DNA of 64,000 nt, taken from the NCBI GenBank assembly GCA_016871195.1, contig VFZN01000009.1, positions 1,451 to 65,450 of the forward strand, given 5' to 3'. The notes beneath the pieces were generated by a model. That model was not told the origin of the DNA. It searched no databases and saw only the letters and a list, made by a program, of their open reading frames with translations. The position numbers and the translations under genes are program-made. Position 1 is the stretch's first letter. Each line of letters starts with the position of its first letter. The DNA is from Acidobacteriota bacterium (GTDB lineage: Bacteria; Acidobacteriota; Vicinamibacteria; Vicinamibacterales; UBA2999). Positions 11,356 to 39,765 of this stretch are shown here, in pieces.

Positions 11356-11382
11356 TATAGTCCAGCCCTGTCCGTCCCTGCC

Positions 11383-12084: not shown

Positions 12085-12143
12085 CGGCCTGGCGGGCCGA
12101 GCGTTGCCGTGGTCTGTCTGGAACGAGCGCTGGCATGCGCTGT

Positions 12144-12162
12144 CAGGGCAACGTCTGCCCTG
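12144..12162. terminator. Hairpin between convergent genes
   Basis: CAGGGCA-acgtc-TGCCCTG, a perfect 7-bp stem, in the 86-nt gap between the methyltransferase (+) and glycosyltransferase (-) stops. No U-tract. Confidence 0.3.
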
Positions 12163-12170
12163 GTGTCGCG

Positions 12171-13274: not shown

Positions 13275-13299
13275 ACATGCGGGATAACCGCGAGTTCCG

Positions 13300-13305
13300 T
13301 ATAAT
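13300..13305 (+). promoter_or_regulatory. Candidate -10 hexamer (TATAAT) upstream of TonB-dependent receptor
   Basis: Perfect TATAAT in the GC-rich divergent intergenic region. No good -35 seen. Confidence 0.25.
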
Positions 13306-13376
13306 TGGTCGGTGTGGGAAATCGTGCTCTGCAGCGGCTGTTCATGTGGCAGCGCGCTGATTTTATCGGAGGTGCT

Positions 13377-16478: not shown

Positions 16479-16991
16479 ATGGGGCTGCCGTGTGGAGATA
16501 TCGGCGCTGCGAACCCCGGCCTCTCGGCGCTGGGGCCGCCGCATGTCGCCCTCACGCGCGTGACCTGCTACCATCCGATCGTGCCTCTCGACGAACGTGC
16601 CTTCTTCACTGAACGACCCGAGCAGCGCCCGGGGCAGTTTGCCTGCCCGCGGTGCCGCCGCAGCCACGAGTATCCGGTGCGCTGGGTGCGACGCATCCGA
16701 AAGCCGCAGCCGCCGCCGCAGGCCGACGGGGCCGACCGCGCCCGGTGGGCCAAACTGCGCGATCACCTGCTGCGGCTCGATGACGAAGTGACCTGCAAGT
16801 CGTGCAGCAAGCGCTTCGAGATTCCTTCGCAGCAGTCGCTGGTGTTTCTCGACCAGCTGGACGGCCTGCCCAACGATGCCGAACTGGATGCCGAGATTGC
16901 GGCCGCAGAGTCTGACGCCGCTGCGCCGCCTGCGCCGAAAGGGCCGCTGCCAGCCCGGTTCTCGCGCCCCTCGCGCGGCTGGCGGGGATGA
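16479..16991 (+). CDS. Hypothetical Zn-ribbon protein
   Basis: CPRC...(57 aa)...CKSC four-Cys arrangement. High third-position G+C. The stop overlaps the next gene's ATG (ATGA 16988-16991). The true start may be GTG 16560 or 16581. Confidence 0.5.
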   Translation: MGLPCGDIGAANPGLSALGPPHVALTRVTCYHPIVPLDERAFFTERPEQRPGQFACPRCRRSHEYPVRWVRRIRKPQPPPQADGADRARWAKLRDHLLRLDDEVTCKSCSKRFEIPSQQSLVFLDQLDGLPNDAELDAEIAAAESDAAAPPAPKGPLPARFSRPSRGWRG

Positions 16992-22782: not shown

Positions 22783-25296
22783 ATGCGTCGTTCCACTGCC
22801 ATTCGTGTCGGGGGACTCTGCTGTCTGCTGCTTGTGCAGGTGGCGTCGGGAACCCTGCGCGCGTCGCAGCAGGCCCAGGCTGCGGCTGTGCGCAACCGCC
22901 CGGCCGCAGAGGCCGCGCTCAAGGCCGGACGCCACGACGACGTCGAACGCCTGACGGCAGATGCCGGTACCGATGAGGCTCTGGTGGTCATCAGGGCCCG
23001 CGCGGCGCGGGCCACCGGCGACTACGACAAGGCACAGTCACTGCTGGGACCCGCGGCCGACCGGCTGCGATCGGGCGATGCGGCACTCGAACTCGGCCTG
23101 CTGCAACTCTACCGGGGCCAGCGCCCCCAGGGGCGTCGCACACTCGAGCAGGTCATGATCGGGGCGCAGGATGCGGTCACCGCCAGCGACCTCGCGCGTG
23201 CGGCCAGAGCTGCCCGTGCCCTCGGACGCTTCGAAGATGCAAACGCCCTGTTTCGCGATGCCATCCGACTGACGCCGGACGACGCGGCGATCAACACAGC
23301 CTGGGGCGAACTCTTCCTCGAGAAGTTCAACAAGGCCGAGGCAACGCAGTCGTTCAAGGCGGCGCTCACCGCCGAACCGTCGTCTGTCGAGGCGCAGATG
23401 GGCATGGCCCGGGCGCTGGCCGACGAGAACCCACCGGAGGCCCGTCGCCTCCTCGATCAGGTGCTGGCCGCCAACCCTCGTCACACCGAGGCGCTGACCG
23501 AACTGGCCGCCGCAGCCATTCAGCAGGATCGGAAAGTCGAGGCTCGCGAGTGGATCGCGAAGGCACTGGCCGTGAATCCGCAGAGCCGCGAGGCGCTCGC
23601 GCTCGAAGGCGGCCTGGCCTATGTGGAAGGGCGCACCGACGAGCTCGCACGCATCGAGGCGCGCGTGCGGACCATTCATCCGGCCGACGCGGAGTTTTAT
23701 CGCACGCTGGGCGAGGTGACCGCCGGCTATTACCGGTTTGAGGAAGCGGCCACGCACGTGCGTCGTGCCCTGCAGCTCGACCGCGAGCACTGGCGGGCGT
23801 ACGCTGATCTCGGCGCACATCTGATGCGGATTGGCGACGAGGCCGGTGCGCGGCGGATGCTGGAAATGGCCTTCCGGCAGGACCCGTACGATGTCGTCAC
23901 GTTCAATCTGCTCGGCGTGCTCGATGCCCTCGAGAAATTCGGCAGCATCACCGATGGCCCGCTCGTCGTCAGGCTGCACGAGGACGAGTCGCCTGTCATG
24001 TCGCATTACGTGCCGGCTTTGGCGCGCGAGGCCTTCGAGACGCTCAGCCGCACATGGGAGTTCACGCCGACCGGGCCGATTCTCGTCGAGATGTTTCCGC
24101 GCCACGATGACTTTGCGGTGCGCAACCTCGGATTGCCCGGATTGCTCGGCGCACTCGGTGCGTGCTTCGGCAAGGTAGTGACGCTCGATTCGCCAAAGGC
24201 ACGCCCCCCGGGCGAATTCAACTGGGGCGCGACCCTGTGGCACGAGATGGCGCACGTCATCACGCTGCAGCTGTCGGGGCAGCGTGTGCCGCGGTGGCTG
24301 ACCGAAGGTGTCTCGACCTTCGAGGAAACCCGCGCCGGTCGTGACTGGGGACGAGAGATGGATGTGACCTTCGCGCGCGCCCTCGAGGCCGGCAAGGTCT
24401 TTCCGCTGAAAGATCTCAACAGCGGCTTCACCAACCCCGAGACGATCTCGCTGGCCTACTTCCAGTCGTCGCTCATCGTCGAGCACATCGTTGAACGATT
24501 CGGGCAGCCGCGCCTGCGCGCGCTGGTGCAGGTGTATGCGACGGGCGTCGATACTGACGCGGCGGTGTCTCAGGCGCTTAGTGTGCCGCTCGACAACCTG
24601 CAGGCGAGCTTCACCCGGTTCCTCGAGACGCGCTACGGGCGGCTGCGGCAGGTGCTGAAGGCCCCGGAGGGACTTGCGCAGGCCATGACCGTCGAGGCCC
24701 TCGAGGCACTGGCCCGGCAGCACGCCGACTCGTTCCCGGTGCAGATGGCACTCGGCGAGGCGCTCCGTGCCTCGCAGCCGGCACGGGCACTGACGGCATT
24801 CGAGAGAGCGGCAGCCCTGGTGCCGAATGCCCCGGGTGATGAGAATCCGCTGCGAGCCGTGGCCGAGGTGGCGCAGTCGCTGAAGCAGCCGGCAAGGGCG
24901 ATCGAGGCGCTGGATGCGCTCGGCACGCTCGACCCGGCAGCCCTGACGGCGGCGCGCACCCTTGCCACGCTCGTCGATCGGAAGGCACAGCCGCAGGTGC
25001 TGGAACGGGCGCTGCGCCGTGCCGTGGCGGTCGATCCGTTCGATGCACCGTCGCACACGACACTCGGGCAGCTGGCGATGGCCGATCGCCGGCACGCTGA
25101 TGCGGTTCGCGCCTTCCGCATCGCGCTGGCAGCGCGGCCGGTCGATCGGGCAGGCGCACACGCGGACCTCGCCGAGGCCCTGCTGGCCAACGGTCAGAAA
25201 GACGAGGCGCGACGGCAGGTGATGGCGGCCCTTGAGATTGCCCCGACCTATCCTCGGGCCCAGGAACTGCTGATCACCCTGAGTGGGGGACGCTAG
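22783..25296 (+). CDS. TPR-repeat protein with embedded MA-clan (gluzincin-like) peptidase domain
   Basis: Signal peptide. TPR-like helical repeats flank ATLWHEMAHVITLQ...WLTEGVSTFEE (HExxH at 24241-24255, plus a downstream Glu). Confidence 0.75.
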   Translation: MRRSTAIRVGGLCCLLLVQVASGTLRASQQAQAAAVRNRPAAEAALKAGRHDDVERLTADAGTDEALVVIRARAARATGDYDKAQSLLGPAADRLRSGDAALELGLLQLYRGQRPQGRRTLEQVMIGAQDAVTASDLARAARAARALGRFEDANALFRDAIRLTPDDAAINTAWGELFLEKFNKAEATQSFKAALTAEPSSVEAQMGMARALADENPPEARRLLDQVLAANPRHTEALTELAAAAIQQDRKVEAREWIAKALAVNPQSREALALEGGLAYVEGRTDELARIEARVRTIHPADAEFYRTLGEVTAGYYRFEEAATHVRRALQLDREHWRAYADLGAHLMRIGDEAGARRMLEMAFRQDPYDVVTFNLLGVLDALEKFGSITDGPLVVRLHEDESPVMSHYVPALAREAFETLSRTWEFTPTGPILVEMFPRHDDFAVRNLGLPGLLGALGACFGKVVTLDSPKARPPGEFNWGATLWHEMAHVITLQLSGQRVPRWLTEGVSTFEETRAGRDWGREMDVTFARALEAGKVFPLKDLNSGFTNPETISLAYFQSSLIVEHIVERFGQPRLRALVQVYATGVDTDAAVSQALSVPLDNLQASFTRFLETRYGRLRQVLKAPEGLAQAMTVEALEALARQHADSFPVQMALGEALRASQPARALTAFERAAALVPNAPGDENPLRAVAEVAQSLKQPARAIEALDALGTLDPAALTAARTLATLVDRKAQPQVLERALRRAVAVDPFDAPSHTTLGQLAMADRRHADAVRAFRIALAARPVDRAGAHADLAEALLANGQKDEARRQVMAALEIAPTYPRAQELLITLSGGR

Positions 25297-26108
25297 TGGC
25301 GGGCCGACGTGCTGAGGGCTGGCTGCGGTTGCCGATCCTCTGCGCGATCGCGCTGGCGGCACTGCTGACGGCGGCAGCCGTTGAGGCCCAGATTCCTGCG
25401 ATGCCCGGCGACCGGCTGGCCGGGCTGCAGTGGACATTTGCCCGCGTCAAGTACACCGCATCGTATGAGCGCCTGGGGGCCGGTCGACCACGCATGAGCT
25501 TCTGGGATGATCCCTGGGCCATCGATGCGCCTGCCGCCGAGCAGAATCTCTCGCGACGCATCCGGTCAGTGACGGCGATTCAGGTGGGTGAGCCGGTGGT
25601 CATCGAACTGACCGACGAGCGCCTGTGGCAGTTCCCGTGGCTGTATCTGGTCGAGCCGAGCAACCTCGATCTGCAGCCCAACGAGATTCCGGTGCTGCGC
25701 GAGTTTCTGCTGCGCGGCGGCACGCTGACCTTCGACGACTTTCACGGCCCCTATGAATGGGAGCTGACCGTGCAGCAGATGTCGAAGGTGTTTCCCGACC
25801 GCGAGATCGTCGAGCTGACGCCGTCGCATCCGATCTTCTCGGCCTTCTACCAGCTGGAGAAGTATCCGCAGATACCCGGATTGGGATCGTTCTTCAGCGG
25901 ACGCACCTGGGAGAAGGGCGGCTTCCAGCCGCACCTGCGCGCGATTCTTGATGATGAGGGACGGCCCATGGTGCTGTTCAACTGGAACACGGACATGGGC
26001 GACGGCGTCGAGTGGTCGAACGCCGAGGAATATCCGGGCTACCTCCGCTGGACGGCGCTGGCGTACCAGATGCTGATCAACGAGGTGGTGTATTCACTGA
26101 CGCACTGA
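25296..26108 (+). CDS. DUF4159-like protein
   Basis: GTG start overlaps the upstream TAG (TAGTG 25294-25298). FPWLYLVEPSN...LREFLLRGGTLTFDDFHGPYEWE...HPIF pattern. Confidence 0.6.
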   Translation: MAGRRAEGWLRLPILCAIALAALLTAAAVEAQIPAMPGDRLAGLQWTFARVKYTASYERLGAGRPRMSFWDDPWAIDAPAAEQNLSRRIRSVTAIQVGEPVVIELTDERLWQFPWLYLVEPSNLDLQPNEIPVLREFLLRGGTLTFDDFHGPYEWELTVQQMSKVFPDREIVELTPSHPIFSAFYQLEKYPQIPGLGSFFSGRTWEKGGFQPHLRAILDDEGRPMVLFNWNTDMGDGVEWSNAEEYPGYLRWTALAYQMLINEVVYSLTH

Positions 26109-26131
26109 CGACGCGAAGGATACCTGACGAC

Positions 26132-27139
26132 ATGAACGAGTCTCTGCACGACATGCCCGAACTGGCCCGACAGGTGGCGCACCAGCGTGAACAGGTGCTG
26201 ACGGAACTGCGGAAGGTGATTGTCGGGCAGGACGAGGTCGTCGATCAGGTGCTGATGTCGCTGTTCTGCGGCGGTCACTGCCTCATCACGGGCGTCCCCG
26301 GCCTAGCGAAGACGCTGCTCGTCAAGACACTCGCCCAGATTCTGCACCTGCGCTTCAAGCGCATTCAGTTCACGCCCGATCTGATGCCGGCCGATATCAC
26401 CGGCACCGAAGTGCTCGACGACGAGGGCGGCCGCCGCGCGCTGCGCTTTGTGCACGGACCGATCTTTGCGCAAATCATCCTGGCCGATGAAATCAACCGC
26501 ACGCCGCCGAAGACGCAGGCGGCCCTGCTCGAGGCGATGCAGGAGTATCACGTCACCGCCGCCGGCCGCACCTACGAGCTTGAGCGCCCCTTTTTCGTGC
26601 TCGCCACGCAGAACCCTATCGAGCTTGAGGGCACCTATCCACTGCCCGAGGCGCAGCTCGATCGCTTTCTCTTCAACGTCGTCATGACCTATCTCTCGGA
26701 AGACGATGAGGTGAAGGTGGTGACGGGCACTACGGGTCGGGCGGGGGCCGAGCCGCAGCGTGTGCTCGACGGCAACGACATCATGCGCATTCAGGAAGCG
26801 GTGCGGTCGGTGCTCGTTGCCGAGGACATTGCGCGTTATGCCGTGCGCCTGGTCGACAGTTCGCGGCCGGGTCGCGGGGCCAGGCTCGATTTCATCGAGC
26901 AGTATGTGAAGTGGGGTGCCGGCCTGCGGGCCTCGCATGCCCTTGTGCTGGGCGCGAAGGCCCGGGCGCTGGTGCATGGCCGACTGCACGTCACGGTCAA
27001 GGATGTGCAGGCGCTGGCGGCGCCGATTCTGAGGCACCGCGTGGTGCCGAACTTTTACGCGGAGGCCGAGGGCATGACGCCCGATCGCCTCATCGAGCGG
27101 CTGGTCGCGGCCGTTCCGGTGCCGACCAGCGGACTCTAG
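26132..27139 (+). CDS. MoxR-family AAA+ ATPase
   Basis: Walker A GVPGLAKT, Walker B ILADEINR, and VLATQNPIELEGTYPLPEAQLDRF. ATG 26132 is chosen over track start 26012, which overlaps the upstream gene. Confidence 0.9.
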   Translation: MNESLHDMPELARQVAHQREQVLTELRKVIVGQDEVVDQVLMSLFCGGHCLITGVPGLAKTLLVKTLAQILHLRFKRIQFTPDLMPADITGTEVLDDEGGRRALRFVHGPIFAQIILADEINRTPPKTQAALLEAMQEYHVTAAGRTYELERPFFVLATQNPIELEGTYPLPEAQLDRFLFNVVMTYLSEDDEVKVVTGTTGRAGAEPQRVLDGNDIMRIQEAVRSVLVAEDIARYAVRLVDSSRPGRGARLDFIEQYVKWGAGLRASHALVLGAKARALVHGRLHVTVKDVQALAAPILRHRVVPNFYAEAEGMTPDRLIERLVAAVPVPTSGL

Positions 27140-27143
27140 CCGC

Positions 27144-28037
27144 ATGACGACGCCGTCGCGGTTCCTTGATCCGTCGGTCGTGGCCCGGCTGGGCACGATC
27201 GACATCAAGGCCCGCACCATTGTCGAAGGGTTCCTGAGCGGACTGCACCGCAGCCCGTTCCGCGGCTACAGCGTCGAGTTCGCCGAGTATCGCCCCTACC
27301 TGCCGGGCGACGACCTCGCCACCCTTGACTGGAAAGTGTTTGCCCGCACTGATCGCCATGTGGTGCGCAAGTTCGAGCACGACACCAATCTCGAGTGCCA
27401 CATCGTCCTCGACATCAGCCGGTCGATGAGTTTTGCATCGGGTACCGTGTCGAAGCTCGAATACGGGTCTTATGTCGCCGCGACGCTGGCCTACCTGATG
27501 CATCGCCAGCACGATGCGGTGGGGCTGGTGACCGTCGACGATCGCATCCGCTTCCGCATGCCTCCCGGCGTGCGGTCGGGTCATCTGCGTGCGCTGCTGG
27601 TGGCCCTCGAGCGAGTCACACCAGGGGAGGCGACGAGGCTTGCCACGCCCTTCGGCGATCTCGTCGAGGCCATCGATTGGCGGGGACTCGTCGTGGTGAT
27701 TTCCGATCTGCTTGACGATTCCGACGCGGTCATCGACGGGCTGTCGCACTTCCGCCATAAGGGCACCGATGTGGTGGTGTTTCAGGTGCTCGACCCGTAC
27801 GAGCGTGAGTTTCCATTCGAGCGTGCCTCGCGCTTTCGCGACATGGAGAGCGGCGAAGAGGTCGCGCTGGTTCCGGGTGAGATGCGCGAGCGATATGTGA
27901 CGCGCATGCGTGAACAGATCGCGCACTATCGTCACGCGCTCGGGCAGCATGGCATCGACTACTGTCTGCTGACGACGACCGACCCGCTCGACACGGCGCT
28001 GCTGGCGTACCTGCAGACACGGCGGAAGAGCCGATAA
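27144..28037 (+). CDS. DUF58 domain-containing protein (vWA-like)
   Basis: GLHRSPFRGYSVEFAEYRPYLPGDD...DWKVFARTD and a MIDAS-like DISRS. 4 nt after the moxR stop. Confidence 0.9.
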   Translation: MTTPSRFLDPSVVARLGTIDIKARTIVEGFLSGLHRSPFRGYSVEFAEYRPYLPGDDLATLDWKVFARTDRHVVRKFEHDTNLECHIVLDISRSMSFASGTVSKLEYGSYVAATLAYLMHRQHDAVGLVTVDDRIRFRMPPGVRSGHLRALLVALERVTPGEATRLATPFGDLVEAIDWRGLVVVISDLLDDSDAVIDGLSHFRHKGTDVVVFQVLDPYEREFPFERASRFRDMESGEEVALVPGEMRERYVTRMREQIAHYRHALGQHGIDYCLLTTTDPLDTALLAYLQTRRKSR

Positions 28038-29867
28038 ATGGGCGCGCTCTCATTTCTGGCTCCGATGTACCTGCTGGGGGCACTGGCGATTGCCGTGCCG
28101 CTCCTGCTGCATCTCTATCGACGACGCACCGAAGAGGTCATCGAGTTTCCATCGGTCGCATGGCTGCAGACAGTGCCGGTCGAAACGCACCAGCGGCGAC
28201 GCCTGCGCGACTGGCTGCTACTGATGCTGCGCGTGGCTGCGCTGCTGCTGCTGGCCGCGGCTTTCGCACGTCCCTACCTCGCGTCGGGCGAGGCCGCCAT
28301 CAGCCGGCCGCTCACGGTGCTGGCCGTTGACGTCTCAGCCAGCATGGCCGCGCCGGGTGTCTGGTCTCGAGCCCAGCAGGCTGCGATGTCGGCGCTTGAT
28401 GCGGTCGCCGACGGCGAGCTGGTCGCGCTGGTACGCTTCGACAACACGGCCGCGGTCGCGGTCGCGCCCACGTCAGACCGCGAGGCGGTGCGCCGCGCGG
28501 TTTCGGCAATGCAACCCGGGGAGGGCGCCACGGCTCTGCACGCCGCGCTGCGGCAGGCCACCGAACTGGTCGGGGCACGGGACGGACGCGTGGTCCTTGT
28601 GTCGGATGTGCAACAGTCAGGGTGGGAACGGTCACTGGCGGGTGTCGTTCCCGAGTCGATACCGGTCGATGTGCGGGTGGTGGAAGGCGCACGCGGCAAC
28701 CTCGCCCTGACCGATGTCTCGCCCGTGCCCGCCTTGCCGGCGTCGACGGGTAGTGCCGGGTCGCCCGCGGTTACGGTGGCGATTCGGAACTTTGGAGTGG
28801 CCCAGCAGCAGACGACGGTGACGGTGCAGCCGGCAGGCGAGGCGCGTGCGGTCACGCAGGATGTGACGGTGGCGCCGCAGAGTGCCGTGTCGGTGCGGGT
28901 GCCGCTGGTGTCGCTTCCCGAGGAGGCCGTGGTGTCCATCACCGATCCCGACGGCATCCCCGTAGACAATCGACTGGCGTGGTCATCAACGCGCACGGAT
29001 GTGGCGCAGGTCACCGTGCTCGTGGCTAATCCCGGTGGCAGCGACGGCTTGTATGTCGAGCGGGCGCTTGAGGCCGTGGCGTCACGTCGTCGTCTGCAGG
29101 TGTCGGTGGTTGACGGGTTGTCGTATTCGTCTTCGGCGTCTCAGGGGGATGATTCATCGCATCTGCTGATGGTGCTGGGTTCGCGAACGCTCACCCGGAA
29201 TGGACGGACCCGCCTGAAGCAGCACATCGAGGCCGGGCACCCGGTGCTGATGACACTGGGGCCGCAGGTCGACCGCGAGACGATGCGCGAGTGGCTGGGA
29301 CGGCCCCTCGTGCTGCATCCGGACGATGGGCAGTGGCCGGCGCTCGGACGTCCTCTAGTGATCGATGACGTGCGGCATCCGGTGTTTCTCGGGGCTCAGC
29401 GCACGGATGCGGTGCTCGGTGACATACCGATCAGGCACAGTGCGCGTGTCACCGCGCTCGACGGATGGCGTGTGCTGGCCCGGGTCAGCGATGGGACGCC
29501 GGTGCTGCTCGAGTCTGACGCGCCCGGCGGTCGTGTGCTGCTGTGGACATCGGATGTCGACCAGCAGTGGAACGGCTTTCCGCTGTCGCCAGCCTTCGTG
29601 CCCTTTCTGGCCGATGCGGTGGCCTACCTGCTGGGGCAGGCCCCAGGAGGGCGTGACTCGCGTGCGGTGATGAATGAGGGCAACCCGTGGCCGCTGTCGG
29701 CGGAGGCGCTGCTGGCCGGTATTCCGCGGGGGCCGAGACCACAGGCGCCGCCCCCCGAGGTGAGTGCCCGGCGCCTCGAGTCGGAGCAGCGATGGTGGCA
29801 GGCCGGGCTGGCGCTGATGCTGACCGCGCTGCTGATTGAAGGATGGATCGGGCGGCGCGCCCGCTGA
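28038..29867 (+). CDS. BatA-type protein: N-terminal double-TM domain + vWA domain
   Basis: FLAPMYLLGALAIAVPLLLHLYRRR N-terminal anchor, MIDAS DVSAS and a C-terminal TM. ATG abuts the upstream TAA (28035-28040). Confidence 0.8.
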   Translation: MGALSFLAPMYLLGALAIAVPLLLHLYRRRTEEVIEFPSVAWLQTVPVETHQRRRLRDWLLLMLRVAALLLLAAAFARPYLASGEAAISRPLTVLAVDVSASMAAPGVWSRAQQAAMSALDAVADGELVALVRFDNTAAVAVAPTSDREAVRRAVSAMQPGEGATALHAALRQATELVGARDGRVVLVSDVQQSGWERSLAGVVPESIPVDVRVVEGARGNLALTDVSPVPALPASTGSAGSPAVTVAIRNFGVAQQQTTVTVQPAGEARAVTQDVTVAPQSAVSVRVPLVSLPEEAVVSITDPDGIPVDNRLAWSSTRTDVAQVTVLVANPGGSDGLYVERALEAVASRRRLQVSVVDGLSYSSSASQGDDSSHLLMVLGSRTLTRNGRTRLKQHIEAGHPVLMTLGPQVDRETMREWLGRPLVLHPDDGQWPALGRPLVIDDVRHPVFLGAQRTDAVLGDIPIRHSARVTALDGWRVLARVSDGTPVLLESDAPGGRVLLWTSDVDQQWNGFPLSPAFVPFLADAVAYLLGQAPGGRDSRAVMNEGNPWPLSAEALLAGIPRGPRPQAPPPEVSARRLESEQRWWQAGLALMLTALLIEGWIGRRAR

Positions 29868-29886
29868 TTCGCGTACGATACGGCCT

Positions 29887-32800
29887 ATGGACGCGCACGA
29901 GCACGCCGTCGGAGCCCTGCTGAGCCAGGTGCGTGAGCGCCTCTGGCGGAACAGCCGGCGCCGTCTCTGGACGGTTGGTCTGGCGGCCGCCAGTGTGGCG
30001 CTGGCTATCGGCGGTCTTGTCACCTGGTGGGTGGCGGGTGAGGGCGTGCCGCTGGTGGTGGCCGTTGTCGCCATGCTGCTGGCTGTGGCTGCGGTGCTGA
30101 GAGCCACCGCGCTGTCGATGCCTGCCGCTCCTACGGAGCGTGCGGTCGCTCGTCTCGTCGAGGAACGTACCGGCGGCCTCGATGACCTGCTGGTCACGCT
30201 GGTCGATCACGATGCACAGCCGTCAGCGTCGGTCGAGGCACTGCGGCAGCAGGCCGAACGCGCCATTCGGGATGTGGCGGTCGACGATGTGGTGCCCACC
30301 CGCGTTGTGGCGCATGCGACACGCGGACTCGTCGCCGCAGGAATAGTGCTGGCCGTGGCTGCCCTCGGCGTGAGTCCTTCCGTGTGGCGCGCCTCACAGG
30401 TGGTCAGCGCCTACCTGTTTCCGGCGCGCATCGACATCGTGGTGGAACCGGGCGACAGCCGTGTGCGGCGCGGTGAGGCCGTGCAGGTCGCTGCCCGGGT
30501 CACTGGTGTCGAGGGCCTGGCTCCGTCGCTCCTGCGCGAGACCGACACCGGTGTCGTGGCCGAACCCATGCCGCGTGCGGCCGACGGTCGTTTTGTGTGG
30601 TCACTGGCCGCGCTCGAGGCGTCGGTGACGTATCGCGTCACGGCAGGGCCGGTGACGACCGGGACGTTCCACATCGAGGCGATCGACGCTGCCGCGTTGA
30701 CGCGCATCGATCTCACCTACAGCTATCCGGCGGCCATGCGTCAGCCGTCCCGCACCGAGGCCGACAGTGGTGACATCTTCGGTCCGCGCGGCACGGTCGT
30801 GACGGTCGACCTCGTGTTCGACAAGCCAGTGGTCAGCGGTGCCCTTCAACTCGGCACAGGCCAGCCGCTCGCGGCCGAACGCACCGCGGAGGGCCTGCGG
30901 GCCCGGCTGACGATCGATCAGGACACGACGTATCGAGTCGCAGCCCGTGACGGCGATGGCCTCGACAGCACAACGGGCGTCGAGTATTTCATCCGCATGC
31001 TCAACGATCGTCCTCCTGATGTGCGCATCGCGCATCCCGGGGGCGATCGGCAGGTGACGCCTCTTGAAGAAGTGACCATTGAGGCCGTGGCCGACGATGA
31101 CTTTGCGGTCGCGTCGCTCGAGATTGTGGTGCAGCGGCAGGGGAAAGCCGAGACCGTCGTCCCGGTGCGCACCAATCAGTCGCCGCAGGTGACGGGGCGT
31201 TATGTCGTGGCCATGGAAGATCTCGGTGTGAAGCCCGGTGAAATGGTCAGCTATCACGCGCGGGCGCGCGACGTCGGCCGCGGTCGTGCCGCGACCGAGG
31301 TGCGCAGCGACATCTACTTCCTCGAAGTGAAGCCGTATGAGGAAACCTTCCGCGCCGCCCAGACGCAGGCGGCCAGCGGGCAGATGGCTGCCCCCGAGGT
31401 GCAGGCGCTGGTGGATGCGCAGAAGGAGATCATCGCCGCGACATGGAAGCTCGATGCACGTGCCCAGCGTGCCGGGGCGTCTGCGGCGCGTCGCGATCTG
31501 AACGAGCTGGCGCAGGCGCAGCGGGCGCTGCGCGACCGTGCCCTCGAAGAAGCGGGCAACGTGGCGCAGGCCCTGGCTGATCCGACCCGCCGGCGTCGGC
31601 AGGCGCCGCCCGGGGCTGGCGGTGCCGCGTCACCGATGCAGGCAGCGGCCGAGGCCATGGGTGAGGCCGCCGAGGAACTCGAGCGGGCGCGACCGCGGCA
31701 GGCCCTGCCGCGCGAAATGGAGGCGCTTGAGCAGCTGCTCAAGGCCGATGCCGACGTGAAGGAACGGCAGATCGCCCGCCAGCAGGGCAACGGGCGCGCA
31801 GGCAATCGGCAGTCGCCCGATATGTCGACGCTGTTTGACCAGCAGCTGAGACAGCAGCAGCAGACCAGTTACGAAACACCGACGACCACCGAGACCCGCG
31901 AAGAGACCCCGCCTGAGGCTGACCCGCTGTCGCGCATCCGCGAACTGGCCCGGCGTCAGGAGTCGCTGCAGCGTCAGCAGGAAGAGCTGGCCCGCAATCG
32001 GGCGCGGCTGGAGGCGGAAGAGGCCCGGCGGCAGCTCGAGCGCCTGACACGCGAGCAGCAGCAGCTGACCGAGCAGGCCTCGTCGCTGGCGCGTGATCTC
32101 AGGAATCAGTCCTCGTTCTCACCACAAGGCACGGAAGAATCGCGCGCGAGGCAGCAGGGCACCGAGGAGTCGCGGGCGATGCAGCAGGCGGCCGAGCAGA
32201 TGCGGTCGGCGGCGGGTGATCTGCAGCGGCAGGACCCGACGCAGGCCAGCGCCCGCAGCGGGCGCGCAGCCGAGGCCCTGCGCAATCTGTCGCGCCAGAT
32301 GGAACGTGCCCAGCCCGAGGCGCGACAGCGGGCACTGGGCGATCTGCAATTCGAGGCGCGGCAACTGGCCGAGGCTGAGCGACGCCTGGCGGCCGAGGCC
32401 GAGCAGCGGGCGCGGACGCCGGATGCCAGTCGCGCACCGTCGCCGGCAGCCGCGACAGACGACGCGCGGCGACTCGCCGCCGAACAGAATCGCCTCGCCG
32501 ATCGGGCGGCGCAACTCCGTGACGCCGCCAGGCAACTGGCGCGTGGCCTTTCGCCCGACCGCGAACCTGACCCCACGACGCGCGAACAGCAGCAGGCGGC
32601 GGTCGACGCCGCGCGTGCGCTCGAGCGCAGCCAGCTCGAGGCGCAGATGCGGGGGTGGGCAGATCGGCTGGGCACGCGCCCCGAAGCCAGTGCCGAGGCC
32701 GCCGCTCAGGCCCGCGAGATGGCGCGCGCGCTGGATCGCGTGGCCGGACAGCTGGGCGAAGCCGCCGGAGTGAGTGACCGCGAAGGCGAGCGCCTGTCCG

Positions 32801-33279
32801 AGGCCCTGCAGCGCACCGGGGAACTGCGGACGCAGATGGCCGAGGCTCAGCGTGCCCTGGAGGCGCTGGCGAAGGAGGCCGACACCCCGGATACCGACCC
32901 GGACCGACAGCGGCGGATCGAACGGCTGCAGCGGGACGCGCAGGGGCGCATGGGCGAGGCACGGGCCCTTGCCGAGGGCTTGCAGCAGTCGAGCCCGGAG
33001 CTGCGTCAGGCCCCCACCACTCCTGAAGACTGGAGCCCCAGCCTCTCGGCCCCGGGCACCGAAGCGTTCAAGCAGGATCTGTCGAGCTGGGAATCGCTCA
33101 AGCGTCAACTGCTCGCCGCCGTGGATCGCACCGAGCGGCGGCTGACTGACGCGCTGCGCGCACGCATGTTGACCGACCGGCTGCCGGCGGGCGGGGCCTC
33201 TCAGGTGGCCGACGAATATCGGCCACTGGTTGACCAGTATTTCCAGACGCTGCCGGCGCCGAGGCGGCCTCAGCAGTGA
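29887..33279 (+). CDS. Large two-TM protein with long Q/R/E/A-rich coiled coil (DUF4175/TIGR02302-like architecture)
   Basis: ATG 29887. Two N-terminal TM helices, a beta-rich middle, then roughly 600 aa of charged helical low-complexity sequence including QGTEESRARQQGTEESRAMQQ. The family name is inferred from architecture only. Confidence 0.6.
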   Translation: MDAHEHAVGALLSQVRERLWRNSRRRLWTVGLAAASVALAIGGLVTWWVAGEGVPLVVAVVAMLLAVAAVLRATALSMPAAPTERAVARLVEERTGGLDDLLVTLVDHDAQPSASVEALRQQAERAIRDVAVDDVVPTRVVAHATRGLVAAGIVLAVAALGVSPSVWRASQVVSAYLFPARIDIVVEPGDSRVRRGEAVQVAARVTGVEGLAPSLLRETDTGVVAEPMPRAADGRFVWSLAALEASVTYRVTAGPVTTGTFHIEAIDAAALTRIDLTYSYPAAMRQPSRTEADSGDIFGPRGTVVTVDLVFDKPVVSGALQLGTGQPLAAERTAEGLRARLTIDQDTTYRVAARDGDGLDSTTGVEYFIRMLNDRPPDVRIAHPGGDRQVTPLEEVTIEAVADDDFAVASLEIVVQRQGKAETVVPVRTNQSPQVTGRYVVAMEDLGVKPGEMVSYHARARDVGRGRAATEVRSDIYFLEVKPYEETFRAAQTQAASGQMAAPEVQALVDAQKEIIAATWKLDARAQRAGASAARRDLNELAQAQRALRDRALEEAGNVAQALADPTRRRRQAPPGAGGAASPMQAAAEAMGEAAEELERARPRQALPREMEALEQLLKADADVKERQIARQQGNGRAGNRQSPDMSTLFDQQLRQQQQTSYETPTTTETREETPPEADPLSRIRELARRQESLQRQQEELARNRARLEAEEARRQLERLTREQQQLTEQASSLARDLRNQSSFSPQGTEESRARQQGTEESRAMQQAAEQMRSAAGDLQRQDPTQASARSGRAAEALRNLSRQMERAQPEARQRALGDLQFEARQLAEAERRLAAEAEQRARTPDASRAPSPAAATDDARRLAAEQNRLADRAAQLRDAARQLARGLSPDREPDPTTREQQQAAVDAARALERSQLEAQMRGWADRLGTRPEASAEAAAQAREMARALDRVAGQLGEAAGVSDREGERLSEALQRTGELRTQMAEAQRALEALAKEADTPDTDPDRQRRIERLQRDAQGRMGEARALAEGLQQSSPELRQAPTTPEDWSPSLSAPGTEAFKQDLSSWESLKRQLLAAVDRTERRLTDALRARMLTDRLPAGGASQVADEYRPLVDQYFQTLPAPRRPQQ

Positions 33280-33298
33280 CGCCCGGGATTCGCTCCGC

Positions 33299-35518
33299 AT
33301 GAGCCTTGCCGTCGTCTGGCCCTGGTGGGCGCTGGTGGCCGCTGCCGTCGGCATTGTGATTGCGGCCCTGGCGGCTTACCGTCGCGCTGTGCCGCCGTTG
33401 ACCGAGGGGCAGCGGGCTGCCCTCGTGGGCCTGCGCGTGCTCGTCCTGAGCGCCCTTGTCGTGGCGCTCTTGCGCCCCGTGCGGCAGTCGCCCAGTGCCG
33501 AGCAGCCCACGCGTCTGCTGCCCGTTGTGGTCGACGTGTCGGGCAGCATGGGCATTCCCGATGCGCCAGAAGGGAAGACGCGCCTCGATGCGGCACGTAC
33601 GCTGGTACGCACCATCGAATCACAGCTGACTGGCGCGCGCCTGCGTGTGGAAGTGTGGCCGATGCACGATGGCACTACGGCAACCGATGTGAACGCGCTG
33701 CGCGCGGAGGGGACTCGCAGCGATCTGGCGGCCGCGATCGACGAAGTCGCCGGGCGCGCCCTCGCTCGGGATGCCGCCGCCGTCGTGCTAGTCTCAGACG
33801 GAGTGACCACCGATCGCGGCGTGGCGCGACCCGAACGGCGCGACGCGCTGCCGCTGTTCACCATGGCCGTCGGCGGCGCGCAGGCAGTGCGCGATCTCGA
33901 TGTCGTGCGCATCGAGGCCGGGACTGCCACCTTGCCCGGTTCGGCCATCGACATACTTGCGGTCGTCGTTGCCCGCGGGATGCGCGGACGTGCCGTGACG
34001 CTGCGGCTCAGCGAGAACGGGCGACCCGTCGACTCAGCCACGGTCACCCCTGATGCCGACGTGGCCACCATTCCCTTCCGGTTTGTGGTCACGCCTCCCC
34101 CTGATCAACCCACGGTGTATGCCACCGAGGTGCAGCAGGCCGATGCCGTGCCCGGTAACGACCGGCGTCAGGTGCTGGTGCCGCCCCAGATGGGTCAGCG
34201 GCGTGTGCTGCTGATGGAAGGGGCCCCCGGGTTCGAGCACACATTCCTCAAGCGTGCCCTGGCCACTGATACCGCGTTGTCAGTCGATGCCCTCGTGCGC
34301 AAGGGGCGCGATGATCAAGGCCGCGATACCTTTGCGGTCCAGGCCACGGAAGACCGCGCGTCGGTGCTGGCCCAGGGATTTCCCTCGAGCCGGGAAACAC
34401 TCTTCCAGTACGACGCCGTGGTGCTCAGCAATGTCGAGGCCGAGTTCTTCACGCGGGCGCAGCTCGAGCTGGTGCGGCAGTTTGTGGCCGAGCGCGGTGG
34501 TGGCCTGCTGGTGATGGGATCACGCAGCTTTGAGCGCGAAGGGATGGCGGCCACGCCCATCGCTGATGTGCTGCCCGTTGATCCGGCCGTGCGTCGGTGG
34601 CAGGACGCGGCAGCCGACGATGCCGCGAGGAACCTGCCGGCCAACGCCCCAGCCGTCACCCGCGATGGTGCCACGCACTCGGCCACGCGCCTGTCGATCG
34701 ACGGCGATGACAGCGCTGCGCTGTGGCGCACCTTCCCTCCGCTGGCCTCGGTATCTTCGATGGGCGCACCGCGTCCAGGGGCGCAGGTGCTGGCGGTGAC
34801 CGCCAATCCCGGAGGCCAGGCGAGCCCGCTCATCGTCATGCAGCGCTTCGGTCAGGGGCGATCGCTCGTCTTCGCCGGGGAAGCGGCATGGCGGTGGCGG
34901 ATGATGCGCCCCTCGTCCGACACGGCCTACGCCACGGTCTGGCGCCAGATGATTCGAGCCTTGGTCGCACCAGCGCCCGGGCCCGTGATCATGAGGGCGG
35001 GTGGCGTGGCGGGAGCCAACGAACAGACGCCGGTGCTGATTGATGTGCGTGACGCACGGTTCCTTCCGGTGACCGACGCCGAGGTGAGGCTCACCGCGCA
35101 GGCCCCCGATGGTCGGACACGATCGCTGCAGCCCGTGCTGAGCGATGCCGCCGCCGGGCGCTACGCCGTCGTGGTGCCGACGTCGGACGCCGGGGTCTGG
35201 ACGCTGACCGCCGAGGCTGTGCATCGCGGCGTGGTGCGCGGCACGACGGTGACCCATCTGCTGATTCCGCCGCCGAATGACGAATTCACGCGACCCGAGG
35301 TGAACCTGCCCGCGCTGCGTCGGCTCGCCGACGCGGCAGGAGGACAGGCCTTCACCGACGACACCTTGCCTGACCTCATCGAGCGCCTGCGCCGCCTGCA
35401 GACGTCGCCGGCCCGATACGAGGACGTCGACTTGTGGCACAACGTCTGGACGCTCGCAGGTATCATCGCGCTGCTGGCGACGGAATGGACCCTGCGTCGC
35501 CATTGGGGAATGCTATGA
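33299..35518 (+). CDS. Membrane-anchored vWA protein fused to class-I glutamine-amidotransferase-like domain
   Basis: N-terminal TM pair, MIDAS DVSGS, a later RRVLLMEGAPGFEH...YDAVVLSNVE...GGGLLVMGS (GATase1/ThuA-like) segment, and a C-terminal TM. Confidence 0.7.
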   Translation: MSLAVVWPWWALVAAAVGIVIAALAAYRRAVPPLTEGQRAALVGLRVLVLSALVVALLRPVRQSPSAEQPTRLLPVVVDVSGSMGIPDAPEGKTRLDAARTLVRTIESQLTGARLRVEVWPMHDGTTATDVNALRAEGTRSDLAAAIDEVAGRALARDAAAVVLVSDGVTTDRGVARPERRDALPLFTMAVGGAQAVRDLDVVRIEAGTATLPGSAIDILAVVVARGMRGRAVTLRLSENGRPVDSATVTPDADVATIPFRFVVTPPPDQPTVYATEVQQADAVPGNDRRQVLVPPQMGQRRVLLMEGAPGFEHTFLKRALATDTALSVDALVRKGRDDQGRDTFAVQATEDRASVLAQGFPSSRETLFQYDAVVLSNVEAEFFTRAQLELVRQFVAERGGGLLVMGSRSFEREGMAATPIADVLPVDPAVRRWQDAAADDAARNLPANAPAVTRDGATHSATRLSIDGDDSAALWRTFPPLASVSSMGAPRPGAQVLAVTANPGGQASPLIVMQRFGQGRSLVFAGEAAWRWRMMRPSSDTAYATVWRQMIRALVAPAPGPVIMRAGGVAGANEQTPVLIDVRDARFLPVTDAEVRLTAQAPDGRTRSLQPVLSDAAAGRYAVVVPTSDAGVWTLTAEAVHRGVVRGTTVTHLLIPPPNDEFTRPEVNLPALRRLADAAGGQAFTDDTLPDLIERLRRLQTSPARYEDVDLWHNVWTLAGIIALLATEWTLRRHWGML

Positions 35519-36483
35519 ACACTCGCCACCGATGTGCTGGGATCCTTGCGCTGTGGGCGCTGCTGCTGTTCGGCGAGGCCGCGGCCGAGACGCGGCGTGC
35601 GCTGATCATCTCGGGGGCGTCCGGCGGCGAGAAGTACGCCACCGACATGGCGCAGTGGCGGACGACGCTGCGCGAGGCGCTGGTGTCGCGCCATCGGTTC
35701 GATCAGGCGCAGGTGCAGATGCTCGTCGATGAGGCCGCCGCCGAGGGGACGCGGGCGACAGCGGCCGCCGTGAAGACGACACTGGCCCGCCTGCGCAGCG
35801 AGGCGGCACCAGACGACTTCCTGCTGGTCGTGCTGTTCGGGCACGGCACCTTTGATGGCGAGGTGGCGAAATTCAATCTGGTGGGCCCTGACCTCACCGC
35901 AGCCGAATGGCAGCAGGCCCTGGCGGGCATTGCCGGACGCGTTGCGATCGTCAACACCACCGAGTCGAGCTTTCCCTTTCTCGACGCCCTGAAGGCCCGG
36001 GGGCGCATCGTCGTGACCGCGACGAACTCGGCGGCGCAGAAGTACGCGACGGTCTTCCCGCAGTATTTCGTCAAGGCGATGAATGAGGCGTCGACGGATC
36101 TCGACAAGAATGGTCGGACGTCGCTGCTCGAAGTGTTCGAGGCGACGAGCCTCGCCGTGACGCAGCACTACGAGCAGCAGGGCCTGCTGACGACCGAACG
36201 GGCTCTCATCGATGATTCCGGAGACGGGCGCGGCAGCGAACAGGGCGCCGAGGGCGGGGACGGCGCACTGGCCCGCACCTGGCAGATCGATGCAGAGCCA
36301 CAGGCCGCCTCGACCGATCCTGAAGTGAAAGCCCTGTTGCAGCGTCAGCGGACGCTCGAGGCCGAGGCCGAGGCGCTGAAGCTGCGCAAAGACTCGATGC
36401 CGGCGAACGAGTGGCAGTCGGCCTACGAAACACTGATGCTTGATCTGGCGCGCGTGTCACTCGAGCTGCGCAAGCGCGGCTAG
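35515..36483 (+). CDS. Secreted peptidase C13 (legumain/GPI8)-like protein lacking the catalytic Cys
   Basis: ATGA overlap with the upstream gene; signal peptide. LLVVLFGHGTFDG (His110) aligns by eye with legumain YFTDHG. VAIVNTTESSFPF aligns with YIEACESGSMM, giving Thr149 in place of the Cys. IVVTATNSAAQKYAT aligns with VYATTAANPRESSYA. C-terminal coiled coil. Confidence 0.55.
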   Translation: MNTRHRCAGILALWALLLFGEAAAETRRALIISGASGGEKYATDMAQWRTTLREALVSRHRFDQAQVQMLVDEAAAEGTRATAAAVKTTLARLRSEAAPDDFLLVVLFGHGTFDGEVAKFNLVGPDLTAAEWQQALAGIAGRVAIVNTTESSFPFLDALKARGRIVVTATNSAAQKYATVFPQYFVKAMNEASTDLDKNGRTSLLEVFEATSLAVTQHYEQQGLLTTERALIDDSGDGRGSEQGAEGGDGALARTWQIDAEPQAASTDPEVKALLQRQRTLEAEAEALKLRKDSMPANEWQSAYETLMLDLARVSLELRKRG

Positions 36484-37139
36484 GCGCCCCACCACTCGAC
36501 CTGCGCGCGCTCGGGTCGCTCGAGTGGCTTCACGAGCAGCACCCCTGCCACAAAGCCCATGACGTGCGCCCAGAAGGCGACGCCGCCCGGGAGATCGGCC
36601 GCGGTCGCCAGCGATCCGAGGCCGCTGAGAAACTGCATCAGGAACCACAGACCGAGGAAGAAGACCGCCGGCACTTCCGTGAGCAGAAACGGAAACGGCA
36701 GCAGCGTGAGCACACGCGAGCGCGGATAGAGCACAAAGTACCCGCCCATCACACCGGCAATGGCGCCGCTTGCGCCCACCATCGGCACGACCGACTCGCG
36801 GTTCAGCAGCACCTCGGCCAGCGCCGCCACCAGGCCCGTCAGCAGATAGAACAGCACGAACCGGGGACGACCGAGGCGGTCTTCCACGTTGTCGCCGAAG
36901 ATCCACAGGTAGAGCATGTTGCCGCCCGCATGACCCACGCCCGCATGGATGAACATCGACGTCAGCAGCGTCAGCGCGGAAGGCGCGGCTGGAATGATGC
37001 CCCACTCGCGGATGAAGCGATCGAGGGCCTCGGGCGGCAGCGTCAGCTCGTAGCCGAAGACCAGCACGTTCAGCCCGAGCAGCACGTACGTGACCCAGGG
37101 CGTGGTGCGCGTCGGGATGATGTCCTTCAGGGGAATCAT
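36480..37139 (-). CDS. Rhomboid family intramembrane serine protease
   Basis: HAGVGHAGGNMLYLW and GASGAIAGVMG (GxSG) motifs, with a downstream His in a TM helix (AFWAHVMGF). 219 aa. Confidence 0.85.
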   Translation of the reverse strand: MIPLKDIIPTRTTPWVTYVLLGLNVLVFGYELTLPPEALDRFIREWGIIPAAPSALTLLTSMFIHAGVGHAGGNMLYLWIFGDNVEDRLGRPRFVLFYLLTGLVAALAEVLLNRESVVPMVGASGAIAGVMGGYFVLYPRSRVLTLLPFPFLLTEVPAVFFLGLWFLMQFLSGLGSLATAADLPGGVAFWAHVMGFVAGVLLVKPLERPERAQVEWWGA

Positions 37140-37420: not shown

Positions 37421-38368
37421 TCAGCGCCGCGGACCCACGGCCCGGTTGTGCAAGTCGGGCAGGGAGGCCACCACGACATCGCCCACCACCTGGAGGCTTT
37501 GTGCACTCACCTGATCGAGCGTATCGGCCGCCGTATGCCACGCCGGATAGTCGAGGTCGATGATGTCGAGCGCCGGCACGCCGGCCTCGAGAAACGGCAT
37601 GTGGTCGTCTTCGACGGGGAATGGCTCGTCCAGAAAGTGCGCGCCGTGCCCGAGGCGCCGGGCGGTCGCCCAGACAATGTCGGTCATCCAGCGCGTCGAG
37701 TTGGTGTCGCGTCGCACGTTGAGCGAGCGGTCGCCAATCATGTCGAGCAGCACAAGACCGCGGACGCTGCCGAGGGTACCGGCCTGTCGTGCCGCGGCGA
37801 CATAGTGACGGCTGCCGTAGGTGTGGTTGGGGGCGACCCATTCGCCCCAGGCTTCCTCGCCGTCGAAAAACACGAACTCGGTTGTCAGCGGTAGGGGCGG
37901 CCGCGCGTTCATGACGCGGGCCAGTTCGAGCAGTGCTCCGGTGGACGAGCCGCCGTCGTTGGCACCGACGAAGCGGAAGTCCTGCACCGGTTTGCTGTCG
38001 AAGTGACTCGCCAGCAGGAACCGCTCCGCACGCTGGCCGGGCAGCGTCGCGATGACGTTGGTCATGCGGACGCGGCCGACCGGGGTGGCGGTCTCGAACG
38101 ACTGTTCGACGGGTGCGTAGCCGTATTGCTTCAGCGTGGCGATGATGTGCGCGCGGGCGCGGGCATTGGCGGCAGACCCGGCAGGGCGAGGCCCGAAGGC
38201 GACCTGCTCGCGCACCAGCGCCATCGCACGCGTACTGTCGAACGTGGCGGGGCCCGCGGGAGGGGAGGCCGGGCGCTGAGTGGCGGCGAGCGGGACCAGA
38301 GAGAGGATCCCGCTCGCCAGCAGCAGTGCGACCGATGAGGCGAGTGGCCGGCGCCGTATCGCAGTCAT
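37421..38368 (-). CDS. M28 family peptidase / glutaminyl-cyclase-like
   Basis: Signal peptide. HFDSK...GANDGGSSTGALLELAR...FFDGEE...LDMIGD...H metal-ligand pattern. Confidence 0.8.
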   Translation of the reverse strand: MTAIRRRPLASSVALLLASGILSLVPLAATQRPASPPAGPATFDSTRAMALVREQVAFGPRPAGSAANARARAHIIATLKQYGYAPVEQSFETATPVGRVRMTNVIATLPGQRAERFLLASHFDSKPVQDFRFVGANDGGSSTGALLELARVMNARPPLPLTTEFVFFDGEEAWGEWVAPNHTYGSRHYVAAARQAGTLGSVRGLVLLDMIGDRSLNVRRDTNSTRWMTDIVWATARRLGHGAHFLDEPFPVEDDHMPFLEAGVPALDIIDLDYPAWHTAADTLDQVSAQSLQVVGDVVVASLPDLHNRAVGPRR

Positions 38369-38383: not shown

Positions 38384-39670
<1,287 letters not shown>

Positions 39671-39737
39671 AGCGTAAATCTGCTTCATTGTAGTCCAGCG
39701 CCCGCGTCGTCTGCGCACGGGAACGCCTGCGTGTTTC

Positions 39738-39765
39738 ATGCATTGTATGCATGGATGTCATGCAT
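39738..39765. promoter_or_regulatory. Three ATGCAT palindromes in gltA upstream region
   Basis: ATGCAT at 39738-39743, 39747-39752 and 39760-39765, in an AT-rich island. On the minus strand they overlap a TACAAT -10-like hexamer. Confidence 0.35.

Follow-up and report, generated by a model that had tools for sequence, protein, structure and literature searches.

A secreted, Cys-less protein of the legumain/caspase fold encoded in a MoxR/vWA operon of an Acidobacteriota genome

The C13L gene and its product

We analyzed a 64,000-nucleotide stretch of an Acidobacteriota genome (assembly GCA_016871195.1, contig VFZN01000009.1, positions 1,451 to 65,450 of the forward strand), hereafter referred to as the window, and focus here on a gene for a secreted, Cys-less protein of the legumain/caspase fold that we term C13L. 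The gene is the last of an eight-gene plus-strand cluster of the MoxR/DUF58/BatA type, and its start codon lies over the stop codon of the preceding gene, which encodes a membrane protein with von Willebrand factor A (vWA) and GATase1-like domains. The window holds long spurious open reading frames in all six frames; the C13L frame is a real one. Its 322-aa product has more than 2229 homologs in a database clustered at 90% identity, and the family comprises 3021 representative clusters (50% identity, E ≤1e-3), 791 of which are found at E ≤1e-30. The features of the locus are collected in Table 1.

The N terminus of C13L, MNTRHRCAGILALWALLLFGEAAA followed by E, runs from a basic stretch through a hydrophobic core to an A-x-A motif. 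The N-terminal segment of close orthologs is also hydrophobic, and in most of them it finishes with a small-residue motif ahead of the first strand. We read this segment as a Sec-type signal, by which the protein would be secreted to the periplasm. The sole cysteine of C13L, C7, falls within the predicted signal peptide, leaving none in the mature protein. A previous interpretation made from the DNA alone, which we call the sequence-only reading, had proposed both a signal peptide on this product and translational coupling through an ATGA overlap to the vWA/GATase1-like gene. Hydropathy and the conserved Sec-type segment in orthologs support the former, and the overlap itself is read directly at the start of the gene.

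In the public annotations examined, homologs of C13L are called "hypothetical protein", and NCBIfam has no model for the family. Wherever its taxonomy was sampled, the family belongs to Acidobacteriota, and a search for related loci with an alignment of 26 close orthologs (A1) returned only close loci from Vicinamibacterales/Acidobacteriota metagenome-assembled genomes. The few homologs whose record titles name Bifidobacteriaceae, Cyanobacteriota, or Acidimicrobiia are probably mislabelled bins. Judging by how the nearest loci and proteins are named, the organism of the window is an uncultured representative of Vicinamibacterales.

Table 1. Features of the C13L gene and of the operon that it closes (window coordinates)
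Feature	Coordinates	Strand	Description and basis
C13L gene	35515..36483	+	Secreted, Cys-less legumain/caspase-fold protein; translation and homologs
ATGA start/stop overlap	35515..35518	+	C13L ATG over TGA of the upstream vWA/GATase1-like gene; sequence read
Predicted Sec signal peptide	35515..35586	+	Residues 1-24, cleavage between AAA and E; hydropathy, A-x-A motif kept in orthologs
Caspase-hemoglobinase domain (clan CD, C13-like)	35590..36219	+	Residues ~26-235; AlphaFold, Foldseek, hhalign
His110	35842..35844	+	Equivalent of the catalytic His (G-H-G motif); alignments, 263/263 sequences
Thr149	35959..35961	+	Most likely position Cys-1; family T62/A60/S19
Glu150	35962..35964	+	Opposite the catalytic Cys in three alignment methods; family S99/A21/G8/E7/P5, close subfamily E105/A8/S7
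Ser152	35968..35970	+	Ser of ancestral C-x-S-G; 141/144 representatives, aligned with invariant S310 of true C13
EF-hand-like loop	36097..36132	+	D195-L-D-K-N-G-R-T-S-L-L-E206, predicted Ca2+ site; D195, S203, and E206 invariant
Conserved Asp/Gly loop	36211..36228	+	D233-D-S-G-D-G238; D234 and G236 ≥90% conserved, also in paralog L034
C-terminal helical hairpin	36319..36477	+	Family-specific, helices 269-290 and 297-321; AlphaFold
TPR-gluzincin (TPR_MA2)	22783-25296	+	Secreted TPR protein with Peptidase_MA_2 core, first gene; HEMAH at residue 487 intact
DUF4159	25296-26108	+	Pfam/NCBIfam
MoxR AAA_3	26012-27139	+	Pfam/NCBIfam
DUF58	27144-28037	+	Pfam/NCBIfam
BatA/two_anch + vWA	28038-29867	+	Pfam/NCBIfam
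DUF4175-like	29836-33279	+	1147 aa; Pfam/NCBIfam
vWA + GATase1-like membrane protein	33230-35518	+	762 aa, MIDAS DVSGS, probable true start 33299; Pfam, hydropathy

C13L is homologous to the C13 peptidases

Taken by itself, the window protein scores 12.6 bits against Pfam Peptidase_C13 (E = 0.096), under the 22.8-bit cut-off, and its single-sequence search of the PDB gives a borderline match to metacaspase-9 (E = 0.07). Profiles of the family reach well into significance. The A1 profile matched Arabidopsis metacaspase-4 at E = 5.5e-7, placing GHGT on the catalytic SGHGT, and a profile of 84 sequences, each representing a 50% cluster (A2), matched the same protein at E = 1.5e-7. When these family members were scanned individually, 41 of the 84 matched PF01650 (E ≤0.01, best 5.7e-9) and 2 matched C14. 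We also collected 29 bona fide bacterial "C13 family peptidase" sequences (A3), seeded from a Cys-bearing paralog in a related genome; all of them match PF01650 and all carry the Cys. An hhalign comparison of A2 with this set aligned 219 columns with Prob 99.66% and E = 2.6e-25. It is because of these family profiles, rather than the sub-threshold Pfam score of the window protein, that we regard the homology to C13 as significant.

The predicted structure leads to the same group of proteins. An AlphaFold model built on the 84 sequences of A2 has a predicted local distance difference test score (pLDDT) of 93.2 and a predicted template modeling score of 0.88, whereas an earlier model built on the 26 close orthologs reached a pLDDT of only 69.5. 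The model contains parallel strands at residues 27-33, 67-71, 102-108, 142-147, and 164-168 with helices on the flanks. A Foldseek comparison with the PDB gave 108 matches at E ≤1e-3, and the 50 best are without exception clan CD proteases. Foremost is the Arabidopsis thaliana legumain beta zymogen (6ysa, E = 1.8e-8), followed by metacaspase 9 (E = 3.3e-8); further matches, to E ≈6e-6, include metacaspases 4 and 1, yeast and Candida metacaspases, MALT1, plant asparaginyl ligases, and PIGK. The nearest solved structures thus comprise both legumains (C13) and metacaspases (C14), and the sequence profiles favor C13. Judged from these profiles and the predicted model, C13L is a divergent homolog (sister group) of the C13 peptidases within clan CD. 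The legumain/C13-like fold put forward in the sequence-only reading is accordingly borne out by structural matches at E ≈1e-8 as well as by profile comparison.

The catalytic histidine is invariant and the nucleophile is lost

Residue compositions were counted over 120 close cluster representatives (≥60% identity, Vicinamibacterales) and ≈145 representatives of the family as a whole. His110 of C13L aligns with the invariant H264 of the bacterial C13 peptidases and with the catalytic His of metacaspases, and it is present in 120 of 120 close and 143 of 143 distant representatives. The catalytic His is therefore retained, as the sequence-only reading had it.

The position of the nucleophile is a different matter. 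Three alignment methods (profile hidden Markov model (HMM) against sequence, MAFFT L-INS-i, and hhalign) all place the catalytic Cys, C308 of the C13 alignment, opposite residue 150. The HMM-to-sequence comparison covered AtMC4 (the C139A crystal construct) and five Cys-bearing paralogs from the same phylum; a sixth such paralog (L030) aligned ambiguously owing to an insertion. In the resulting register, V-N-T-T-E-S-S-F of C13L stands against V-M-E-Q-C-F-S-G, and the "SG" of C-x-S-G pairs with Ser152-Phe153, the latter residue being Gly in most of the family. Glu150, not Thr149, is thus probably the equivalent of the nucleophile Cys, at a spacing of 40 residues from His110. The sequence-only reading had instead matched the Cys to Thr149, with a spacing of 39. 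The verdict that C13L is Cys-less is, from the sequences compared, independent of this one-residue choice, as C13L has no Cys at or near the site and none of the 145 family representatives has one at column 149 or 150.

Both columns tolerate substitution. Residue 150 is Ser in 99 of the 145 representatives (68%) and Ala, Gly, or Pro in ≈23%, and among orthologs of ≥60% identity it varies between Glu, Ala, and Ser while all else stays conserved; one ortholog with Ala150 (P0072) is present on 46 contigs. Residue 149 is Thr or Ser throughout the close Vicinamibacterales subfamily (T116/S4). Across the family as a whole Thr149 is not invariant, as Ala is nearly as frequent there, and nowhere does it alternate with Cys. 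Between 8 and 10 representatives have neither a hydroxyl nor a thiol at either position. We note that in three family members (P0196, P0198, and P0232) the residue that follows the aligned nucleophile, at column 151, is a Cys (x-C-S-G), which may represent intermediates or chance; P0196 is also the member that passes the Pfam C13 cut-off, with 27.9 bits.

A second active-site residue is degenerate as well. The invariant R185 of the A3 alignment, which we take as the counterpart of Arg44 in the S1 pocket of legumain, falls on column 44, where C13L has Asp44 and the close subfamily Gln. Only 34 of 118 representatives (≈29%) have Arg at this position. Enrichment of the Arg in Ser150 members, sought as a sign of an active subgroup, was absent: it is found in 27 of 87 of these sequences (31%) and in 26% of the others.

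Conserved framework, candidate Ca2+ loop, and C-terminal hairpin

Polar residues are invariant in many places across family sequences that are only ≈30% identical, a pattern that strongly suggests purifying selection. Several of these elements, namely G109-H110-G111, Ser152, the D195 to E206 loop, T227-E228-[HR], and D233-D234-x-G-D-G, are common to the C13L family and the Cys-bearing enzymes. Because the same elements occur in Cys-bearing C13/C14 enzymes, much of the conserved sequence of C13L is, on these alignments, ancestral framework and not new catalytic apparatus.

Among them, the family loop D195-x-D-K-[DN]-G-R-[VIL]-S-x-x-E206 exactly fits the EF-hand consensus D-x-[DNS]-x-[DNS]-G-x-[ILV]-[DSTN]-x-x-E. 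The loop is also present in Cys-bearing C13/C14 paralogs, and one member of the C13L family matches Pfam EF-hand_5 (E = 0.003). We infer from this motif that C13L may bind Ca2+.

Following the clan CD domain is a helical hairpin that is specific to the C13L family and missing from the C13 alignment past column ≈412. It is modeled with a mean pLDDT of 90-98 per 10-residue block over residues 271-320, and L274, L288, W/Y300, E305, and A312 are its conserved positions. The sequence-only reading had described this tail as a coiled coil; two long amphipathic helices are indeed predicted, and helical hairpin is the better term for them.

Organization of the operon

The genes upstream of C13L encode the components of a MoxR/DUF58/BatA-type system, a cell-envelope operon conserved among soil Acidobacteria (Table 1), with matches to PF07726 (8e-63), PF01882 (1e-47), PF07584 (1.8e-18), and TIGR02226 (3e-22). 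The metal-ion-dependent adhesion site (MIDAS) motif DxSxS is intact in both vWA proteins and in DUF58. By hydropathy, each of the two vWA membrane proteins has two N-terminal transmembrane helices separated by a short Arg-bearing loop and a single C-terminal transmembrane helix followed by basic residues, a topology that would leave the bulk of the BatA and vWA/GATase1-like proteins in the periplasm. The vWA domain of the BatA-type protein BB0173 has been shown experimentally to face the periplasm (PMC5700661). Signal peptides are read by hydropathy on C13L, the TPR-gluzincin, and the DUF4159 protein. Given the predicted signal peptide of C13L and the periplasmic bulk of the vWA proteins, C13L and the large domains of the neighboring proteins would lie in one compartment.

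At its 3′ end, the C13L gene meets a convergent rhomboid gene (minus strand, 36480-37139); the two share the CTAG palindrome at 36480-36483, in which their stop codons overlap, so there is no room for a terminator between them. Beyond the rhomboid gene, the minus strand carries genes assigned in order to Peptidase_M28 (37421-38368) and citrate synthase (38384-39739). On the other side, the operon is preceded on the plus strand by genes for a DUF1592-type PSD/PSCyt multi-domain protein (16988-19540), a DUF1552/HXXSHH protein (19581-20987), and a 574-aa ankyrin-repeat protein (20991-22715).

C13L is locked to the vWA/GATase1-like gene in other genomes

We surveyed 151 genomes sampled across the phylum with the A2 profile and found strong C13L matches in 33, all of which are among the 35 genomes with a vWA/GATase1-like protein. 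For the comparison of neighborhoods, 16 loci were fetched from 12 genomes. C13L lies directly downstream of the vWA/GATase1-like gene in 16 of 16 loci, despite permuted order of the other genes, and a MoxR-DUF58-BatA-type gene set surrounds it in these loci. The commonest order, seen in 11 of the 16, is vWA/GATase1-like, C13L, TPR_MA2, DUF4159, and MoxR, with DUF58 and BatA noted only where the fetched stretch extended far enough. Elsewhere the connection to the TPR-gluzincin is looser: two loci (L015 and L017) have C13L and TPR_MA2 at opposite ends of one operon, and in three others (L013, L014, and L016) C13L adjoins the vWA/GATase1-like gene but TPR_MA2 is absent within 20 kb. In many related operons, among them L013, L014, L016, L018, L019, L027, and L028, one DUF4159 gene precedes the vWA/GATase1-like gene and another precedes MoxR; the window operon has a single DUF4159 gene.

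C13L also occurs fused to the gluzincin. Two single-chain proteins, P0134 (1156 aa) and P0137 (788 aa), combine TPR, Peptidase_MA_2, and C13L, and P0134 has a cluster mate of 1160 aa in another assembly. Downstream of the P0134 gene (L117, 10001-13471, plus strand) come convergent rhomboid and Zn-ribbon genes that match those of the window, but no MoxR operon precedes it; the six genes from the middle of the operon look to have been deleted or never to have been there. Its upstream genes are unrelated (PEMT/ICMT and a ketoacyl synthase), and a four-base convergent overlap follows the fusion gene here too (10001-13471 on the plus strand, 13468-14127 on the minus strand). Open frames of 1107 and 1186 aa in genomes G073 and G110 were considered as vWA/GATase1-like fusions and rejected as artefacts of stop-poor frames, the genes lying in different frames.

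The genome of the window has a second, paralogous operon (contig C6:152067-159900; locus L118, 12059-19901) that consists of vWA/GATase1-like, MoxR, DUF58, BatA, and DUF4175-like genes at 31-54% identity and is without C13L, TPR_MA2, and DUF4159. Genome G098 is likewise without C13L and TPR_MA2. Within the window's own genome (3.08 Mb, 98% complete), PF01650 and PF00656 found no C13/C14 paralog, although these models missed C13L itself too; the A2 profile, which does detect Cys-bearing paralogs in other genomes, gave exactly one match. We considered a cFLIP-like role for C13L, in which it would act on an active sibling as decoy or regulator, and regard it as unlikely because these searches of the genome found no active C13/C14 paralog.

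A proposed role for C13L and its alternatives

Our favored interpretation, which we hold to be fairly probable, is that C13L is a Ca2+-binding pseudo-peptidase of the periplasm, where it serves a Bat-like MoxR/vWA envelope assembly as a binding subunit. We read it as a pseudo-peptidase because the framework and the His are conserved while the nucleophile and the S1 Arg are free to vary, and as a binding subunit because it appears to be secreted, is adjacent and translationally coupled to the vWA/GATase1-like gene, and is found fused to the gluzincin. A binding or scaffold pseudo-protease had been one of the options in the sequence-only reading, and it is the one that the fold, the invariant His, the variable column 150, the lost S1 Arg, and the locked vWA/GATase1-like neighbor best support.

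In this proposal, C13L would derive from bacterial C13 (legumain-type) peptidases, having kept the G-H-G turn with its His, the S-G element, the EF-hand-like loop, and the E-H/R...DDxGDG loop. The nucleophile Cys and the S1-pocket Arg are lost, with Glu150 and Asp44, respectively, in their places in C13L. The protein has most likely ceased to cleave peptide bonds, and its former substrate groove and C-terminal hairpin would probably bind partner proteins instead. We envisage C13L as a stoichiometric subunit of a machine in which a cytoplasmic MoxR AAA+ ATPase with DUF58 would act together with periplasm-facing vWA/GATase1-like membrane proteins. The vWA/GATase1-like protein encoded just upstream may be its direct partner, through its periplasmic part (residues ~86-735), and a functional link to the TPR-gluzincin of the operon is also proposed; the assignment of particular surfaces to particular partners is what we infer from these data. 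Some observations weigh against the loss of catalysis. His110 is 100% conserved, and several further polar residues (N121, D126, S152, T170, and E228) are conserved along with it, a pattern that an enzyme would show alike. Moreover, the Ser found in 68% of representatives sits exactly at the Cys position, making a His-Ser dyad possible in part of the family.

These observations are the core of the main rival view, that C13L is an active non-thiol enzyme on the legumain fold, acting as a periplasmic hydrolase or transpeptidase either through His110 with the hydroxyl of Ser150 or Ser152 or through a water activated by Glu150 or Glu228. G109 is invariant along with His110, Ser150 and Ser152 are present in 99 of 145 and 141 of 144 representatives, respectively, and the expected substrate pocket would be lined by the invariant polar residues T170, E/Q175, T179, and E228. 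Nevertheless, we consider this unlikely, since column 150 is Ala, Gly, or Pro in nearly a quarter of the family, alternates between Glu, Ala, and Ser among otherwise conserved close orthologs, and in several representatives is joined by column 149 in lacking any hydroxyl or thiol. Cys-bearing C13/C14 enzymes keep Ser152 just as invariantly, as part of C-x-S-G, so its conservation needs no new catalytic role, and even the Ser150 members have a degenerate S1 Arg. We know of no description of a clan CD enzyme that depends on serine. The more specific version, in which the family would be a thiol-free enzyme that processes or cross-links periplasmic proteins of the MoxR/vWA machine, strikes us as slightly more doubtful still; if true, clan CD would gain its first catalytic type that does not rely on cysteine. 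That Thr149 takes the place of the Cys and acts as a Thr nucleophile, as the sequence-only reading had suggested, is very improbable. By eye, legumain E-A-C-E-S can be set against N-T-T-E-S, every member of the close Vicinamibacterales subfamily has Thr or Ser at 149, and, by motif logic, the polar, conserved Asn147 would then be a plausible Cys-2 pocket residue, a position held in known enzymes by Glu, Gln, or Asp. All three alignment methods, however, put the Cys at 150, and column 149, likely Cys-1, is Ala in 60 of 144 family representatives (≈41%).

A further alternative concerns partnership rather than catalysis. C13L could be chiefly an accessory of the TPR-gluzincin, as a substrate-recruiting, inhibitory, or chaperoning domain, with the MoxR/vWA link being secondary. 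The single-chain fusions speak for this arrangement, one of them lying outside any MoxR operon and yet beside the same downstream rhomboid gene, as do the presence of TPR_MA2 directly after C13L in 11 of the 16 loci and at the opposite end of the same operon in 2 more, the joint absence of both genes from operon paralogs, and the intact HEMAH motif. We still think it improbable, if a little less so than an active enzyme, as C13L persists beside the vWA/GATase1-like gene in the three loci that have no nearby TPR_MA2, and its adjacency to that gene (16/16) and its co-occurrence with it are the tighter of the two.

Relation to known systems

C13L shares with bacterial C13 peptidases and legumain (PF01650, MEROPS C13) its fold, profile homology, the G-H-G turn, S-G, the EF-hand-like loop, and the E-H-P/A...DNGDG loop. 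It differs in having no catalytic Cys (Glu150 here; Ser, Ala, Gly, or Pro elsewhere), in an S1 Arg that is not conserved, and in its C-terminal helical hairpin and dedicated linkage to a MoxR/vWA operon. At ≈3000 clusters of 50% identity, this is a large, unannotated family of Cys-less legumain-fold proteins.

Loss of the nucleophile has a precedent in the pseudo-orthocaspases of cyanobacteria and other bacteria, C14 homologs in which His-Cys is replaced by Tyr-Ser (PMC6426788). Like the C13L family, these are bacterial clan CD proteins in which the catalytic Cys has been lost, often giving way to Ser, and which are presumed to be non-proteolytic. Unlike it, they have lost the His too, in favor of Tyr, belong to C14 rather than to a C13-like group, and occur in another genomic context. 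Among bacterial clan CD pseudo-peptidases, C13L would be a second example that arose independently, and its absolute retention of the His may be useful for learning the role of that residue beyond catalysis. The C13-fold subunit PIGK (GPI8) of the glycosylphosphatidylinositol transamidase offers a parallel of another kind, as it works on the non-cytoplasmic side within a membrane complex of several proteins (Foldseek match 7wld_K, E = 6.4e-6). PIGK differs from C13L in that it keeps its Cys-His dyad, is catalytic, and has unrelated partner proteins.

Bat/MoxR-DUF58-vWA operons are widespread, and the literature links them to aerotolerance and envelope integrity. The window operon resembles Bat and RL3499-RL3502-type operons in its MoxR AAA_3, DUF58, BatA double-transmembrane and vWA proteins, and TPR protein. 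As described, however, the classical Bat operons have no clan CD protein, no gluzincin core in the TPR protein, and no DUF4159 or vWA + GATase1-like protein reported. Bacterial clan CD pseudo-variants and Bat/MoxR operons are both already known, and what appears to be new is a C13-like family within such operons, as we found no description in the literature of the C13L family or of a clan CD/C13-like protein in Bat/MoxR operons. Together, C13L, the vWA/GATase1-like protein, and the TPR-gluzincin give the Acidobacteriota form of the Bat/MoxR systems a concrete periplasmic module that can be tested.

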